A stretch of DNA of 15,187 bases, taken from the UHGV virus genome UHGV-1764962; one strand, 5' to 3'. Each line of letters starts with the position of its first letter. The stretch's first letter is position 1. The position numbers and the translations under genes are program-made. A model generated the notes under the pieces. It was given only the letters and a program-made list of their open reading frames with translations. It did not search any database and was not told the DNA's origin. Shown here one piece after another: positions 2,499 through 8,404 of this stretch. The stretch is from a virus.

Positions 2499-2719
2499 TA
2501 GATTGCTCTAATCTGGAGTCACCTGGCGTTTTCAGTATGGATTTTCTTTGGCGCGGTCTGGCCATTAGGGATCATGTTTGCTGCAACGTTTCTTCTGATG
2601 TGGGTATTCACCCTTCCAGGTGATTTCTATAGAAAAAAAGCCAGACATTGATACAATCGCTGCGGGTGCTTGAGGCTATCTGCTTCAGGCATTACCCGAA
2701 AAGCAGATAGAAGAAAGCC

Positions 2720-2783
2720 CCAGATAACATTACGCGTCCTGCAAGACGCTTAACATTAATCTGAGGCCATATCTATGCTTAGC
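2720..2783 (-). ncRNA. Predicted Sok-like antisense RNA (extent approximate)
   Basis: Minus-strand promoter-like elements: -35 TTGACC (reverse complement of 2814-2819) and -10 TAATCT (reverse complement of 2790-2795), 18-bp spacer. A transcript from here would be antisense to the mok start codon at 2775-2777, as Sok is in hok/sok. A 6-bp stem-loop lies at 2735-2750 but no clear U-tract terminator. Confidence 0.3.
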
Positions 2784-2981
2784 ATACGTAGATTAGCCTC
2801 TTACCGACCAAAAGGTCAAGGAGAAGCAGGCTATGAAGCAGCAAAAAGCGATGTTAATCGCTCTGATCGTCATCTGTTTAACCGTCATAGTGACGGCACT
2901 GGTAACGAGAAAAGACCTCTGCGAGGTACGAATCCGAACCGGCCAGACGGAGGTCACTGTCTTCACAGCCTACGAATCTGA
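2775..2981 (+). CDS. mok-like overlapping reading frame (modulator of killing) of the hok locus
   Basis: 68-codon frame starting 58 nt upstream of hok and overlapping it in another frame, ending 7 nt before the hok stop. An in-frame peptide just upstream of the hok ATG (PLTDQKVKEKQA) resembles the MokC N-terminal extension as I recall it. Confidence 0.35.
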   Translation: MLSIRRLASYRPKGQGEAGYEAAKSDVNRSDRHLFNRHSDGTGNEKRPLRGTNPNRPDGGHCLHSLRI

Positions 2982-2988
2982 AAGGTAA
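2833..2988 (+). CDS. hok: Hok/Gef-family type I toxin (small membrane protein), 51 aa
   Basis: ATG at 2833 with SD aaggaga 8 nt upstream; translation MKQQKAMLIALIVICLTVIVTALVTRKDLCEVRIRTGQTEVTVFTAYESER has a single TM helix and the two conserved Cys, and is near-identical to HokD/RelF and HokC/Gef as I recall them. Too short to appear in the ORF track. Confidence 0.8.
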   Translation: MKQQKAMLIALIVICLTVIVTALVTRKDLCEVRIRTGQTEVTVFTAYESER

Positions 2989-2995
2989 GAGACCT

Positions 2996-3015
2996 GGCGG
3001 GGAGAGATCCCCGCC
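2996..3015 (+). other. GC-rich stem-loop with GAGA tetraloop in the hok 3' region
   Basis: 8-bp stem ggcgggga (2996-3003) / tccccgcc (3008-3015) with loop gaga, 8 nt after the hok stop; consistent with a 3' fold-back or stabilising structure. Confidence 0.4.
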
Positions 3016-3062
3016 ACTCTTCGTGTGTCAGGTATCCTCAATGCACCCTTTCCTCTCCAAAT

Positions 3063-3090
3063 AAAAAAGCTCCCGAAGGAGCTTTAAAAT
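3063..3090. terminator. Bidirectional rho-independent terminator between the hok locus and the minus-strand structural operon
   Basis: Hairpin aaagctcc (3066-3073) / ggagcttt (3078-3085) with loop cgaa, flanked by an A-run on one side and ttt on the other; on the minus strand it is followed by a U-run, 20 nt after the end of the 3105-3614 CDS. Confidence 0.55.
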
Positions 3091-3104
3091 ACAAGGGATA
3101 ACTC

Positions 3105-3614
3105 TTAATCCCACTCAATCCAGTTGTAGACGATACGAAGTGACGGGCGCACAGCGGCAGTCACATCTTCGGTACTAAAGTCGATTGCATCACTGTAGAT
3201 TTTGCAGTCCAACATTTCAATTGTTGTAGCAGCTTTTGTCACAGCGTTAACCCCGGAAGATTTGGATTCAGGGGTCGCAGCCATCGTGATATCAACATAG
3301 TCCTTCGCCGCAATGCGATCTTTAATGAACTGAAGAATATCGCCTTCGATAGTCTCCACGCACTGGACCTGGATTTCCCCAGAGTTTCGAATTGGACCGT
3401 GCTGGTTGAACTTCACACCATTCGGACCATAGTCCTCCACATCCTCGCGGGTCATTTCAGGAATTTGCGACGTGCGAACCAGTACGCTGATATCTTCATG
3501 GCCTGCAAAAGTGAGCTGGAATTCAGAAGATACCAGTCGTTCGCCTTTGGCCGCGTTGGCAGTATAGCGGCCCTTAATAAATTTACGGTTTCCCTTAGTG
3601 TTATTGTGCCCCAT
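3105..3614 (-). CDS. Hypothetical phage virion/morphogenesis protein, 169 aa (tail tube candidate)
   Basis: Last gene of the minus-strand operon headed by head and sheath genes; SD aaaagga before the ATG; size in the tail-tube range. No family assigned from sequence alone. Confidence 0.4.
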   Translation of the reverse strand: MGHNNTKGNRKFIKGRYTANAAKGERLVSSEFQLTFAGHEDISVLVRTSQIPEMTREDVEDYGPNGVKFNQHGPIRNSGEIQVQCVETIEGDILQFIKDRIAAKDYVDITMAATPESKSSGVNAVTKAATTIEMLDCKIYSDAIDFSTEDVTAAVRPSLRIVYNWIEWD

Positions 3615-3625
3615 ATAAAATCCTT

Positions 3626-4207
3626 TTACTGGAACGCCCGAACAATATCGGAGCTGTTATATATCGAAGAACCGGTCAACTGGAGGTTGACGGTGTTTTT
3701 CAGGAAATGCCCATTGCTGTCCCTGGGCGCATCGAGATCGAAACTTATGTCCTGGATAGCGACATCAATGATGTTGATCCGGCGACCAATGTTTAGCGTC
3801 ACACGCTCCGGGATTCGACCACCAATACTGGCATCTTTAAGTTCCGGGCTAATCATCGCTGACAATGCGGCGATAGCTCCTGAAACCTCCGTGAATGGGT
3901 CAAACAAAGCGATGAAAGTTACTGGCAGCGTGAAAGTCGGCGGTGTTCCCCCTTCCCAAACCATTAAGCTGTTCCAACGGGCAACCGACGTTGTTTCAGT
4001 ACCAACCTGCGCAAAACCACTGAAGGCACCAGCAACAGATCCCATGGACATACCGGTAAACGGCGCTTCCCAATTCTGGGCCATGTTCATTGCCGCTCCC
4101 TGGCTGATATATCCGGTAACCTGGTACTGAGAGTTCGTTAAAGTAACTTTCAGATATGGCGATACACCGTCAGCCTGGCTGTAAACCCCATAAGGTATAG
4201 GTGCCAT
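3626..4207 (-). CDS. Hypothetical phage structural protein, 193 aa (tail tube or baseplate candidate)
   Basis: Tightly packed ORF in the same operon; Gly/Ala/Ser/Thr-rich. Preceded on the minus strand by the hairpin ggccggag/ctccggcc (4219-4236). Confidence 0.4.
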   Translation of the reverse strand: MAPIPYGVYSQADGVSPYLKVTLTNSQYQVTGYISQGAAMNMAQNWEAPFTGMSMGSVAGAFSGFAQVGTETTSVARWNSLMVWEGGTPPTFTLPVTFIALFDPFTEVSGAIAALSAMISPELKDASIGGRIPERVTLNIGRRINIIDVAIQDISFDLDAPRDSNGHFLKNTVNLQLTGSSIYNSSDIVRAFQ

Positions 4208-4242
4208 TCAAGTTAAAGGCCGGAGTTCTCCGGCCTCCTCCT

Positions 4243-5058
4243 TTAGCCGAGGCGCTTACGGCGCAGTTTCATTGACTTTTTGCGGGCCAGTTTTGCCGCG
4301 CCGGTCTGGGCTTTACGACGCGCTTTTTTCAGCGCCGATTTTTGAGCCGCAGTCAGACGTTTTTTACGCAGGCGTTTACGGATGAGTTTGATCTCACCGT
4401 TACGAACAACCTTCTTAAATGCTTCAGTCAGCATTTCATCAGAAGTGCCAGCAACAACAAACGCCGCTTCCAGTTCGTCACGGTCGTCGCTATCTAAACC
4501 AGCGATAGAGGCACCAACATCAGCGGCTGCGTCGTCGTCTTCATCGTCAGCCAGTGCTTCGATCAGGTCATCATCTACACCGCATGCTGCGAGGAAGTCA
4601 GCAACATTTGCCCATGCTTCGTTATAGGCATCGTCCTGTTCTTCTGTAACTTCGGAGTCGTCGTCATCAGAGATACCAGCGATAGCCTGAACGAAACCAT
4701 CAAGGGAGTCGAAAGTCAGATCACCGCTATCAGCCCAGGCGAAAACGGCGTCGGCCGCATCACTCAACGCATTCTGCATAGCACTTCGATTTGCAGCTTC
4801 CAGAATCATCTGGTGCGCCTGTTCGACGGTCCATTCTTTACCGTCTTTCCCTTCCAGGATTTGCTCAGGAGCCGGGGCAGATGGAACGTTATCGTTAGTC
4901 TGTGCCGCCGGTTCCGGATTATTATTAATAACCGGATCTGTTGGCGGTTCGGCGCTTGCTCGGGCAGACTCCATCAGCTGCACAGGATCAGAGTTCAAAG
5001 CGAAACGGGACAGTCCATTCCCCAAAAATGCCCCGGATTGAAAAAAGTTTTTGCTCAT
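4243..5058 (-). CDS. Hypothetical virion-associated protein, 271 aa, strongly acidic body with a highly basic C-terminal tail
   Basis: ATG at 5058 with SD aagggaa, 9 bp after the sheath gene stop. Central region is Asp/Glu-rich (DDDDSEVTEEQDD, ADDEDDDAAAD); the last ~45 residues are Lys/Arg-rich (KRLRKKRLTAAQKSALKKARRKAQTGAAKLARKKSMKLRRKRLG). Confidence 0.5.
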   Translation of the reverse strand: MSKNFFQSGAFLGNGLSRFALNSDPVQLMESARASAEPPTDPVINNNPEPAAQTNDNVPSAPAPEQILEGKDGKEWTVEQAHQMILEAANRSAMQNALSDAADAVFAWADSGDLTFDSLDGFVQAIAGISDDDDSEVTEEQDDAYNEAWANVADFLAACGVDDDLIEALADDEDDDAAADVGASIAGLDSDDRDELEAAFVVAGTSDEMLTEAFKKVVRNGEIKLIRKRLRKKRLTAAQKSALKKARRKAQTGAAKLARKKSMKLRRKRLG

Positions 5059-5067
5059 TGTATTCCC

Positions 5068-6558
5068 TTACTTAATAAGCAGCGGTACGCCCTGGATACG
5101 ACGGGCTACGCCAGTCGGGCAGCAGGCCCAGACTACTTCCCATTTATCGAATTCCGCCTGCGTAACTTTCAGCACATACGGTTCTGTACCGTCAGGGCTA
5201 TGCTTCATCTGGCGGGCTAACTGGACAAAGAAACGGCTGATTGCATTCATCAGGGATGGGACGTGCTGGAAGTGCAGATAGTTATCCTGCGTGCAGCAAG
5301 TTAAAGCATCGTCGATGATCATCTGGCCAGAGGTGCCAACAGATACTTTATTGAGGCGGCCCTTAACCATTGCTTCTTCGTCCGGGGTATCTTCCGGATA
5401 CAGCGGTTGAATTGACGCACGAGCAATGACGGCACGTTCTTCACCAGCCGGTGAGTAATGCCAACCGCCGACATCAGAGTTTTTCTTGACGCCACGAGCT
5501 TTCGCCGCATACGCCGCGCCAGACAGACCGAAGACCACACGGGATTGGGTCCATTTGTCTTTGCAGGAGAACGGGAAGTGATAGACAGCACAGCTTACAT
5601 AATCGGTACCAAGTAAACCGGTATCTTCAACAGCAGAGAGCGCTTCCGTGTACGTCAATGTCGGTTTGACATCAAAGAAGCCATCAATCAGGCGATCAGA
5701 ACAGATATTACCTAACGCGGTGATCGCCGCATTGTCATAGCAACCCAGGCCGAGAACAGCGGTGTACATGTACGGCGCATTGTTCAGCACCTTAACCGCA
5801 CGCAGGTAGGCTTCGGTGGAGATTTTCGACTGATCGCCGTTGGTACCGCCAGTGAACGCCAGTGATTTTTTATTTGTTACTTTCGCGGTCGAAATCAGCT
5901 CTTCATTAACAACCGCGCGCAGATATTTAGAACGGGCTTCCAGAGCCGTAGGCAGATAACACAAGCGGCCCATGTCATCTTTCGCTTCTTCCGCCAAAGA
6001 CACAGTGTGTGTCTCCAGGGTCGTTACCACGCCGAGCGAAGTCGTCTGGGTCAGTTTCAGGAGGAAGCGTTCATTACCTGCGCTGTCCGCTGTTGCCGTT
6101 TCAATGGTTAACTCACGGGTAGGTGAAATACACGGATCACCATCATCAACGTAGATAGCAAAGGCTTCGCCGCTATCAAGTTCAATTTCAGAACCGTATG
6201 GCAACGCACTGTAAGCCGGTTCGCCTGATTCATCGAACATAATAACCGGGAACTTCGCATCATCCGGAACAGCACGGACAACATAACCAGACGTTTGCTG
6301 AATAGCTTCGTATACATGGCGAATTGGTTCGAACTGTGAGCCGGAAGACGGCTTCAGCGGTTCGCCGAGAACATCTTCGTAATTGGACTCAGTAACCGCA
6401 AGAACAGTAAACGGCTTGCCACGCGCAAATACGCCAATACCAGCCCACAAGCTGCTATTTAATGCAACACCTGTAGATAACGTCGCATCGGCATTGATCG
6501 GGCTAACCGCGACGCCGGATGCATTACCTAATGACTGTTGAATTGAATATTGAGACAT
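5068..6558 (-). CDS. Putative contractile tail sheath protein, 496 aa
   Basis: ATG at 6558 with SD agggaaag; sits directly downstream of the head gene, as sheath (gene 22) follows head (gene 23) in the P1 map as I recall it. Assignment by gene order and size, not by search. Confidence 0.5.
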   Translation of the reverse strand: MSQYSIQQSLGNASGVAVSPINADATLSTGVALNSSLWAGIGVFARGKPFTVLAVTESNYEDVLGEPLKPSSGSQFEPIRHVYEAIQQTSGYVVRAVPDDAKFPVIMFDESGEPAYSALPYGSEIELDSGEAFAIYVDDGDPCISPTRELTIETATADSAGNERFLLKLTQTTSLGVVTTLETHTVSLAEEAKDDMGRLCYLPTALEARSKYLRAVVNEELISTAKVTNKKSLAFTGGTNGDQSKISTEAYLRAVKVLNNAPYMYTAVLGLGCYDNAAITALGNICSDRLIDGFFDVKPTLTYTEALSAVEDTGLLGTDYVSCAVYHFPFSCKDKWTQSRVVFGLSGAAYAAKARGVKKNSDVGGWHYSPAGEERAVIARASIQPLYPEDTPDEEAMVKGRLNKVSVGTSGQMIIDDALTCCTQDNYLHFQHVPSLMNAISRFFVQLARQMKHSPDGTEPYVLKVTQAEFDKWEVVWACCPTGVARRIQGVPLLIK

Positions 6559-6573
6559 AACTTTCCCTGTTAT

Positions 6574-6592
6574 GCGCCCCGCACGGGGGCGC
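6574..6592 (-). other. Intercistronic GC stem-loop between head and sheath genes
   Basis: 7-bp all-GC stem gcgcccc (6574-6580) / ggggcgc (6586-6592) with a 5-nt loop; no U-run follows on the minus strand, so more likely a processing or stability element than a terminator. Confidence 0.4.
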
Positions 6593-6618
6593 TATGTTAA
6601 ACGGAGAACTTCCCCTGA

Positions 6619-8325
6619 TTACTCAGAGTCACCGGCATCAATCGTGTCGCCGCTTATAAAGTTAAGCCCGCCTTTTTTGGCCATTGTCAGCGTTACACGA
6701 GTGAAGTAATCAGCGCCGTTGCGTGGGTGCATATCGTTGATAGCCGAACCCCACAGCGTGGTACGGTTGACCAGCGCCGGAGTGGTCGGATGCTGGAACG
6801 GGATAGCCGGGACAGCATCACCAGTCACGAAGCCTGCTTTACCCGGATTTTCATCACGGACGTAGCACAGCACATCCATCGAGCTGAACTGAATGTTCTC
6901 TGTCGTTAAATTCTTACAAATACCAGCAGGTACTTCGTACACTTTCACGTTACCGAACAGGGTACCGATGTAGTGAACATACGGAGTCTGGATATAGTCT
7001 TCGGCTGGCTGGAAGAAATCCTTCGGCAACTGTTTGAAGAAAGATGCTGCATCAGCACCAGCAAACATCCCCATCGCACCAGAAGATTTAACGCGCTCAA
7101 TAATGTCGCGATATACAGTCTGGAATTTGCCACGAATGATGGTTGCCCATACATCAAAGGACTGGTTAACCGGCAAAGCGATGTCAAAGGAGTCGGTCGC
7201 AAGAGTACGCCAGATCATAATGCGAAGACGCAGCATATCCTGTTCATGAGACAGGTATTCCTTCAGGGTGCGGAACTGTAGGGAACCCAGGTCCAGACCA
7301 AATTCACGCTGTGCTTCATACGCCGCCTGTACCGTATGCTCAGCCGCGATAACGAACTGGCTTGGGAACAGGGTGTATTTCTTCATTTCGTGGTTGATCA
7401 GCGGGATCAGCTCAGGAGCGGCTTCAATATTGATTTCCGTCTCAATTGCGATCTCAGTGCCTTTATCCGGCGCTTTGGAGAACGACAGGGCAATCTGACC
7501 AATGTTGTAGTTCAGAGAGCAGGTAACAGTGATTTGCTCACCAGCAGCATTAGTAAACGAGTGAAGTAGGCTGCCGGAACCGTTATCAACAACAGACTTA
7601 ATACGGTTAACGTAGATGTTAGTGCGACCTTTTCGGATTGGTACATTCTGGCCTTCGAAGTCTTCCATCTTGAAGGTTGCGGTTTTGCTGGTGCCATCGG
7701 AGCTTGCCACCAGCACATAGCGGCGACGTAACTGGCTGTACACACCGACGGATTGCATGTCCAGAACATCACCAGCAGCATAAGAACCAAAAGAGGAACC
7801 TGCCACGTTAAAGACTTCATAGATGTCGGACTGGTCACGCGTAACCGGAATGAAGGTACACGCATCAGCGGTAGCTGCCCCCAACTGAACAGGCAGGATC
7901 ATCGCGAGGAATAAAGGCAGACGCATAACACCGTCAGAAACGCTCATCATCTCTGCTGCGACGGATTCCAGCATCGCTTTATTAGTGGCATCCATGCTAT
8001 TGCGGGTGGACTCAATCAGGCAGTTTTCCAGCGTCTGGTGGCAGGAGGCCAGAATTTCCGGACGCGGCATAGATTTATGTGCTGCGGCGTAGTCAGCCAG
8101 TGCACTTGCCCACGCTGTAGCGATTTGAGCGGTGGCATTATCAGAGATACCCGCAAAAACCGGGTCTTTACGTGCAGCTTCAAGGATAGATGCGGCACGC
8201 GCGGCATCATCTTTAATGAATTGGTTATCAGTACCGAACTGCGCAGTGCTTGCCCAGCCAAGCACAGCTTTAGAGCGTTTTGCGATATCTGCAATACGAT
8301 TCTGGTATTCGCGTAAGTTACTCAA
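6619..8325 (-). CDS. Putative major head (capsid) protein precursor with N-terminal scaffold-like domain, about 569 aa
   Basis: Large late-operon ORF; the N-terminal ~120 aa are helical and Ala-rich, consistent with a cleaved delta/scaffold domain. The ORF track start (8346) is a TTG with no SD; the in-frame TTG at 8323-8325 has SD aggaag with a 6-nt spacer, so 8325 is the more likely start. Assigned by size and position next to the partition locus. Confidence 0.5.
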   Translation of the reverse strand: MSNLREYQNRIADIAKRSKAVLGWASTAQFGTDNQFIKDDAARAASILEAARKDPVFAGISDNATAQIATAWASALADYAAAHKSMPRPEILASCHQTLENCLIESTRNSMDATNKAMLESVAAEMMSVSDGVMRLPLFLAMILPVQLGAATADACTFIPVTRDQSDIYEVFNVAGSSFGSYAAGDVLDMQSVGVYSQLRRRYVLVASSDGTSKTATFKMEDFEGQNVPIRKGRTNIYVNRIKSVVDNGSGSLLHSFTNAAGEQITVTCSLNYNIGQIALSFSKAPDKGTEIAIETEINIEAAPELIPLINHEMKKYTLFPSQFVIAAEHTVQAAYEAQREFGLDLGSLQFRTLKEYLSHEQDMLRLRIMIWRTLATDSFDIALPVNQSFDVWATIIRGKFQTVYRDIIERVKSSGAMGMFAGADAASFFKQLPKDFFQPAEDYIQTPYVHYIGTLFGNVKVYEVPAGICKNLTTENIQFSSMDVLCYVRDENPGKAGFVTGDAVPAIPFQHPTTPALVNRTTLWGSAINDMHPRNGADYFTRVTLTMAKKGGLNFISGDTIDAGDSE

Positions 8326-8376
8326 TTTACTCTTCCTTAAACACAAGGCACTTGTGTGAATCCCTTTTCGGAAGAG

Positions 8377-8404
8377 ATTTTATTGAAAGTCACTTGTTGA
8401 CTTT
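8377..8404 (-). promoter_or_regulatory. Candidate late promoter for the head/sheath operon (-10 TAAAAT plus upstream inverted repeat)
   Basis: On the minus strand: inverted repeat AAAGTCA-N5-TGACTTT (8386-8404) followed 3 nt later by TAAAAT (reverse complement of 8377-8382). No -35 hexamer, an architecture resembling activator-dependent phage late promoters. Confidence 0.3.

Follow-up and report, generated by a model that had tools for sequence, protein, structure and literature searches.

What does the product of gene 21 of phage P1 do? The question was addressed with UHGV virus genome UHGV-1764962, a stretch of 15,187 nucleotides (nt; in the following, the window) that represents a P1-type phage-plasmid: its region 3000-8400 was 98-99% identical to Punavirus P1 and relatives, and homologues of kilA, repL, parB, parA and repA flank this region. 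As a first-pass annotation had stated, an open reading frame (ORF) of 271 amino acids (aa) is located directly downstream of the tail sheath gene; it reads on the minus strand, the plus-strand translation containing many stops, and starts 9 nt past the stop of the sheath gene. Its product, gp21 (29.2 kDa, pI 4.5), corresponds to one annotated ORF. P1 record AF234173 labels gp21 'baseplate or tail tube', other GenBank records for the family read hypothetical, tail tube or baseplate, and the sole PHROG match was 1053 'unknown function' (E=1.5e-99); the products of adjacent genes matched sheath, PmgG-like and tail-tube PHROGs. The analyses described here point to gp21 as a prohead-internal, scaffold- or core-like protein that is processed by the prohead protease Pro, and not to a part of the tail; a probability of about 0.6 was assigned to this reading. 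No proposal of a head or scaffold role for gp21 was found in the literature searched.

The protein is divided into two blocks of opposite charge. Residues 1-220 hold 10 K/R versus 49 D/E (net -39), with residues 96-220 alone at -33 and containing the runs DDDD, DDD and DDEDDD, and the last 47 residues (225-271) hold 22 K/R and no D/E (net +22). The minimum of the cumulative charge, -42, was reached by none of 100,000 composition-preserving shuffles (mean -18.5, sd 1.7). The pattern was kept in 204 homologues of 190-310 aa, with a median body charge of -30 and a median charge of +19 in the last 47 residues; the eight homologues that deviated were mostly truncated or frameshifted sequences. The extreme charge segregation described in the first-pass annotation was thereby confirmed. 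That annotation had named tail tube homology, combined with a charge pattern not conserved in homologues, as the observation that would speak against it; no tube homology was found, and the pattern was conserved.

Family members were collected with a word-indexed search, which gave 85 clusters from P1-like elements of Enterobacterales, Vibrio and Mailhella, and with an exhaustive profile search, which gave 604 representative clusters. All of them share a variable leader, an acidic all-helical domain and a conserved polybasic module of 59 aa. The leader varied in the family alignments, one of which had 196 members. An AlphaFold2 (AF2) model was built from a family alignment. The predicted local distance difference test score (pLDDT) of the leader was 42-52 for residues 1-60 and about 70 at 61-70. 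The acidic domain was predicted to form helices at 78-111, 116-126, 139-158, 163-172, 175-186 and 190-205, with W108, Y145, G160, D171 and D175 as conserved positions. Disorder and structure prediction had been proposed as a check in the first-pass annotation; the leader was predicted to be disordered, and the body was predicted as a folded helical domain and not merely as a disordered chain. The module follows the consensus K-V-V-R-x-G-K-V...Q-K-x-A-L-K-K-A-R-R-K-A...R-x-K-S-M-K-x-R, in which R219, G221, A246, K249, R259 and K261 were invariant, and was modelled as a low-confidence linker (211-236) followed by a basic helical hairpin (237-269) at a pLDDT of 60-80, that is, with moderate confidence.

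By its sequence distribution, the polybasic module behaves as a repeatable, portable unit. Some family members (P0184, P0209, P0215, P0085) contained two module copies with a further acidic stretch in between, or had the module in an internal position ahead of a second acidic region. Small proteins of 60-90 aa (P0248, P0250, P0247, P0256), composed of a short acidic N-terminus and the module, were encoded as stand-alone versions in Salmonella, Yersinia and Edwardsiella, on contigs that reach about 280 kb; at L215/L216 (10001-10258), the Salmonella loci inspected, the stand-alone gene adjoins clamp-loader-like and SbcC-like genes, far from a P1-type structural operon. A homology search with the tail only returned mostly fragments of the gp21 family. 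Scans of gp21 against Pfam and NCBIfam gave no family, and PDB sequence searches with gp21, the family profile and the tail-only profile gave nothing significant. Comparison of the AF2 model to the PDB and BFVD with Foldseek gave no match at E<=0.001, the best values of about 0.1-0.8 corresponding to chance-level helical bundles. A likeness of the basic tail to sequences of the S21 or L34 type of ribosomal proteins was considered and had no hidden Markov model (HMM) support.

The role of gp21 was approached through motifs that resemble the maturation site in gp23, the major capsid protein. In P1, gp23 is cleaved between E120 and S121 (AMLE120↓S121), as determined by Edman sequencing (PMC9024508). 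This is the only phage in which the capsid site was mapped; elsewhere its position was taken from alignment. Two short conserved islands in gp21, the leader site at E30 and the junction site between acidic body and basic module, both resemble the gp23 site. The commonest family form of the leader site, 'MLES', is the same as in the P1 capsid protein, and the junction follows the consensus [M/I/L]-[L/T/F]-[E/D]-[A/S]. Altogether, gp21 has five sites of the form [LIMVF]-x-E-[S/A/G], those in the leader included.

Enrichment was calculated for the 84 annotated coding sequences (CDS) of P1 genome OP279344 by comparing counts of Φ-Φ-E-[S/A] to composition-preserving shuffles. This motif was taken from the mapped gp23 site alone; a first definition had been widened after gp21 was seen. 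Rank 1 of 84 was held by Pro (6 observed, 0.40 expected), rank 2 by gp21 (3 observed, 0.24 expected, p=0.0013) and rank 3 by gp23 (3 observed, 0.44 expected), where all three matches lie in the cleaved N-terminal 120 residues. With the wider pattern, Pro had 8 versus 0.89 expected and gp21 5 versus 0.54; gp21 was also among the top two with the T4-type pattern. In the internal protein DarA, whose processing is likewise known, the only two matches (residues 40 and 66) fall in the N-terminus that is cleaved off; at the second of them, LLE68↓A69, the cryo-electron microscopy (cryo-EM) model begins. The scan of the 84 proteins gave no motif match in BplB, PmgG, Tub and PmgB, nor in Hdf, DdrA and Ulx; Hdf has been reported to be unprocessed. 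The enrichment suggests that gp21 carries prohead protease sites of its own.

Pro itself (P1 locus L164, 10015-11034) is 339 aa long and contains eight Φ-Φ-E-[S/A/G] motifs, one of them MLES at residues 36-39, which suggests extensive self-processing. It had no significant match to a protease family in Pfam; in a pairwise HHpred comparison, conserved secondary structure was found between P1 Pro residues 89-198 and the HK97 gp4 protease (Gonzales et al., PMC9024508).

Co-variation of the gp21 sites with the capsid site was analysed in 128 diverse IMG/VR loci and one Mailhella-associated contig. ORFs were called, and capsid, sheath, gp21-like, PmgG and BplB genes were identified by iterated HMMs. 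The capsid column under P1 E120 was occupied by E, D or, in one lineage, A. In 107 of 107 loci with both proteins, the residue before the cut was identical at the capsid site and the gp21 junction (D/D 70, E/E 36, A/A 1). After dereplication at <80% capsid identity, 68 loci were left (D/D 43, E/E 24, A/A 1). Parsimony on a tree of the mature capsid domain gave four changes for each character and no discordant tip. The A/A case, L178 (IMGVR_UViG_3300009414_000001), has LMLA↓SA in the capsid protein and LMLA↓AV in gp21.

Shared ancestry was controlled for with 1,529 well-occupied columns (capsid 502, sheath 490, PmgG 186, BplB 155, gp21 196). Only three had disjoint residues in E- and D-lineages, namely the capsid site and gp21 columns 212 and 69; within this set, no sheath, PmgG or BplB column tracked the capsid-site residue. 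Pro homologues of the D-lineage contained 1.44 D-type and 0.12 E-type motifs per protein, though their Glu content equals that of Asp. Within the 196 aligned gp21 members, the residues at the leader E30 site and the junction were paired as E/E 125, D/D 23, S/S 4, A/A 2, E/D 4 and D/E 0. In some D-lineage gp21 proteins the site is present twice, on either side of a short insert that directly precedes the basic module. In rare lineages, Ala or Ser was observed before the presumed cut at the capsid site and/or both gp21 sites, which points to shifts in prohead protease specificity within this phage group. The simplest reading of these sequence patterns is that the same lineage-specific factor, the prohead protease, recognises gp21 and the capsid maturation site. 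The first-pass annotation had proposed to check whether homologues are processed by the head protease, and the outcome at the level of motifs was positive. Its scaffold or assembly-factor reading was strengthened by the enrichment and the co-variation.

Gene 21 occupies the third place in the late operon 23 (capsid) - 22 (sheath) - 21 - pmgG - bplB, which extends from late promoter LP23 to a terminator-like hairpin at 3066-3085 past bplB and whose arrangement is kept in relatives. It is thus co-expressed with the major capsid gene. Intact gp21 was not found in virions. The list of P1 virion proteins obtained with liquid chromatography-tandem mass spectrometry (LC-MS/MS; PMC9024508 Table 1) includes ORFs 54, 55, 57 and 58 and not ORF 56, which is gp21; the basic module would be undetectable in this data set, as each of its tryptic peptides has at most 7 residues and is hence invisible to trypsin-based proteomics. 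Leader and body are predicted to yield at least four ordinary tryptic peptides, so that a major structural role of the intact protein is unlikely. Two cryo-EM inventories, one for the whole P1 virion and one for the tail-baseplate complex, together cover baseplate, neck and head proteins and likewise contain no gp21.

Prohead proteases of the type of Pro are generally active only inside assembled proheads; if Pro recognises gp21, the latter must therefore be prohead-internal. We infer cleavage of gp21 by Pro, its location within proheads and the partner of the basic module as follows. The protein would co-assemble with gp23 into the prohead, the basic module serving as an attachment or cross-linking element; it could bind to the inside of the shell, to acidic bodies of adjacent copies or, at a later stage, to DNA. 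Once active, Pro would cleave gp23 at AMLE↓S and, at sites of this type, also gp21. Cleavage at LTE212↓A would sever the basic module from the acidic body, cuts at LME30↓S and ILE69↓G would trim the leader, and the acidic fragments would leave the head, which would account for the lack of gp21 in virions. Four features in combination are typical of scaffold or core proteins processed by a protease: gp21 is missing from virions, its acidic body is predicted to be helical, it is co-expressed with the capsid protein, and its conserved C-terminal module would be severed by a cut. P1 has been described as having no identified scaffold (PMC9024508 section 3.1.1; PMC12810830). On sequence grounds, gp21 would be the missing scaffold-like protein; it may also be an auxiliary core protein and not the sole scaffold.

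Several well-known systems were compared to this model. In the herpesvirus scaffold pre-VP22a/UL26.5, a C-terminal tail binds the shell, the protease cuts upstream of it at the 'M' site, and the body leaves. Similarly, the C-terminal module of gp21, its most conserved part, directly follows the best-supported protease site. The two proteins share no sequence or fold homology, however, and the gp21 tail comprises 59 polybasic residues (+22) instead of a short hydrophobic peptide; its binding to the shell is a proposal. T4 gp22 is acidic, helical and about 270 aa long, is destroyed by the prohead protease at (L/I)-x-E sites and is absent from virions, and the T4 internal proteins IPI-III have N-terminal targeting leaders that are removed at the same kind of site. 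The five sites of gp21, some of them in the leader, resemble this arrangement. T4 gp22 is not homologous to gp21 and has no basic tail; IPI-III, which are basic, remain in the head, whereas gp21 combines acidic and basic parts in one chain split by a site. In P22 gp8, the helical body is acidic, and a basic helix-turn-helix at the C-terminus attaches to coat protein by electrostatic contacts; the hairpin predicted with moderate confidence in gp21 can be likened to this helix-turn-helix. In contrast to the proposal for gp21, gp8 is recycled uncleaved, and no Pfam or PDB sequence match links the two. Similarity of gp21 to known scaffold families (P22 gp8, phi29 gp7, T4 gp22, lambda Nu3, herpes scaffold) was not detected with Pfam, PDB or Foldseek. 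The resemblance to the herpesvirus scaffold and the T4 core thus appears to be one of mechanism and not of family membership.

Several observations weigh against a scaffold or core role. The legacy phenotype class 'baseplate or tail tube' points to the tail; this label reportedly goes back to amber mutants studied by electron microscopy by Walker and Walker in 1983. In 73 of 80 diverse relatives, gene 21 has the sheath gene on one side and pmgG on the other, which is tail-like on its face. Cleavage of gp21 has never been observed. Neither sequence nor fold similarity to known scaffolds was found in Pfam, in PDB sequence and profile searches, or with Foldseek against the PDB and BFVD, and the acidic domain was predicted as a compact helical bundle, as opposed to the elongated shape of many scaffolds. 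The 120-residue N-terminal domain of gp23 has already been proposed as a scaffold (PMC9024508; PMC12810830). Finally, ORFs without an assigned function are located between pro and the capsid gene in D-lineage phages and could be conventional scaffolds; in the vicinity of pro and the capsid gene, this lineage has conserved ORFs of about 170 aa and about 250 aa. In most non-P1 relatives (L084-L163), a further ORF of about 110-210 aa, missing in P1, separates the capsid and sheath genes.

The first two of these points would be accounted for if gp21 were a non-virion tail assembly factor, with the acidic domain chaperoning the tape measure Sit or holding sheath or tube subunits, the basic tail docking on electronegative tube or sheath surfaces, and the factor being released before tail completion. 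Its absence from virions would fit, as would the P1 tube, the lumen and outer surface of which were reported in a cryo-EM study to be largely electronegative and would suit a basic tail; an amber mutant is also reported. Such a factor would leave unexplained why two gp21 columns, and no column of sheath, PmgG or BplB, track the capsid-site residue (E, D, A), and why motif enrichment in gp21 is as high as in the protease. The gene order gp6-gp5-...-major capsid protein-x-sheath-gp21-PmgG-BplB-PmgC-Tub-PmgB-Sit has the capsid gene flanked by tail genes; because the capsid gene is embedded in the same cluster, synteny does not discriminate and was rejected as evidence of a tail role. The 'essential' call for gene 21 by CRISPR interference was rejected as well, since it is confounded by polarity on the essential genes pmgG and bplB downstream; the authors of that screen state that polarity makes calls upstream of essential genes uninformative. 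By the same reasoning, a tail-less phenotype of amber mutants could result from polarity of gene-21 mutations on pmgG and bplB, or the cistron could actually lie in pmgG or bplB. The tail assembly chaperones represented by lambda gpG/gpGT are acidic, are required to assemble the tube and do not become part of the virion. Gene 21 differs from them in its position between sheath and pmgG and not between tube and tape measure, the place beside sit being held by PmgB; no HMM or fold similarity to such chaperones was found, and membership in a chaperone family would not explain co-variation with the capsid site. A tail assembly factor was therefore considered unlikely, though it is the strongest competitor of the scaffold or core role from outside the head.

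A different fate of the cleavage products was considered about equally doubtful. The 59-residue basic peptide (net +22) released by a cut at E212↓A213 might stay in the DNA-filled head, where it would condense DNA or neutralise charge, and may accompany the genome into the cell. In this case, the acidic body would serve as an intramolecular 'antidote' that can be removed: up to the entry into the prohead, it would hold the basic peptide in solution and away from nucleic acids. The occurrence of the module in stand-alone and duplicated form would agree with a unit that binds nucleic acids autonomously. Adenovirus pVII and pX (Mu) are polybasic DNA-condensing peptides freed from precursors by the virion protease; they offer a possible parallel for the peptide A213-G271 from an unrelated virus lineage.

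Improbable, in turn, is a packaged internal protein that is injected with the DNA, its acidic body acting as a DNA mimic or anti-defence effector, as the first-pass annotation had also suggested. The body is extremely acidic, the protease-type sites of the leader resemble the capsid-targeting sequences of T4 internal proteins, and P1 does package Dar proteins. All six Dar internal proteins, however, are in the virion list from which the acidic body is missing (PMC9024508 Table 1). Across about 600 clusters, the gene belongs to the core of the structural operon and keeps its synteny, unlike accessory anti-defence genes, and it is expressed from the late structural operon. Foldseek against the PDB and BFVD gave no match to mimics of the Ocr/ArdA type. 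As far as the acidic body is concerned, packaging or injection was thus disfavoured.

The GenBank reading of gp21 as a structural subunit of tail tube or baseplate, which has the annotation alone in its favour, is effectively refuted already: unlike BplB, Tub and PmgG, gp21 has no match to a tube-type PHROG, cryo-EM identified BplB as the P1 tube and Tub and PmgG as tube-like rings (PMC12810830 and a second cryo-EM study), gp21 is missing from the virion proteome, and its model is all-alpha, with neither a tube-type beta-sandwich fold nor a tube or baseplate HMM match.

The coordinates of gene 21, of the segments and sites of its product and of the neighbouring operon genes are listed in Table 1.

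Table 1. Features of gene 21 and adjacent operon genes in the 15,187-nt window.
Feature	Position	Strand	Remarks
Gene 21 CDS	4243..5058	-	271 aa + stop; 97% identity (263/271 residues) to P1 gp21
Leader, residues 1-75; variable, Pro-rich, predicted disordered	4834..5058	-	two conserved protease-like sites
Leader site L28-M-E30↓S31	4966..4977	-	family consensus Φ-Φ-[E/D]-S-[A/V]
Leader site I67-L-E69↓G70	4849..4860	-	tracks capsid-site residue in 104/106 phages
Acidic all-alpha domain, residues 76-210	4429..4833	-	AF2 pLDDT ~80-94
ILEA motif in acidic domain	4795-4806	-	Φ-Φ-E-A
LIEA motif in acidic domain	4555-4566	-	Φ-Φ-E-A
Junction site M209-L-T-E212↓A213	4420..4434	-	exactly between acidic body and basic module; putative Pro cut
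Polybasic module, residues 213-271	4246..4422	-	most conserved family segment, portable
Gene 23, major capsid protein gp23, first operon gene	6619..8346	-	maturation site AMLE↓S at 7963-7977
Gene 22, tail sheath, immediately upstream of gene 21	5068..6558	-	PHROG 'tail sheath' E=4e-209
pmgG, tube-to-baseplate linking protein, immediately downstream of gene 21	3626..4207	-	
bplB, actual tail tube protein	3105..3614	-	PHROG 'tail tube protein'

Further observations were made on the neighbouring genes. The sheath protein has 496 aa here versus 529 aa in reference P1 gp22, the difference being a single in-frame gap of 33 residues at about residues 456-488; the remainder was about 98% identical. 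According to a P1 tail preprint, sheath residues 401-529 form the central sheath section and the handshake region, so the indel is located in a functionally important part. The short form also occurs in several P1-like phages in the databases (100% coverage matches). Between the gene 21 stop and the pmgG start, a strong hairpin was found at 4218-4240 on the minus strand (RNAfold, -20.7 kcal/mol for the 45-nt intergenic stretch). It sequesters AGGAGG and is followed by just three U residues; no Shine-Dalgarno sequence was found near the pmgG ATG at 4207. Possible roles are a ribosome-binding site bridged by the hairpin, an attenuator, or a stabiliser of RNA 3' ends that sets genes 23-22-21 apart from pmgG-bplB. 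The pmgG start differs between records, with 193 aa in AF234173 and in the present ORF and 154 aa in OP279344.

The gap between repL and bplB (2499-3104) has about 600 bp versus about 1.9 kb in reference P1, where rlfA, rlfB and pmgF are located; the rlfA-rlfB region seems to be absent or replaced in the present element. An ORF of 173 aa (138-659, plus) and a KilA-like ORF of 266 aa (823-1623, plus) share a C-terminal domain of about 120 aa with the pattern LPEALRLAA.LAEQK ... GKGQQWL ... LLDAG, and look like tandem paralogous Ant/KilA C-terminal domains.

P1 is a classic model and a workhorse transducing phage, and P1-like phage-plasmids are widespread carriers of resistance genes. Internal scaffold and core proteins processed by proteases are already known; new would be a family with acidic and basic blocks that is cut at the junction. 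If the scaffold or core role of gp21 is true, the decades-old tail label on gene 21 is wrong and a correction is due in hundreds of records. The family would then represent a simple model of scaffold release by a cut between an acidic and a basic block, and its lineage-specific switches between E, D, A and S would form a natural series for the co-evolution of protease specificity and substrate. P1 head assembly, and possibly the choice between big and small heads, would gain a missing player.

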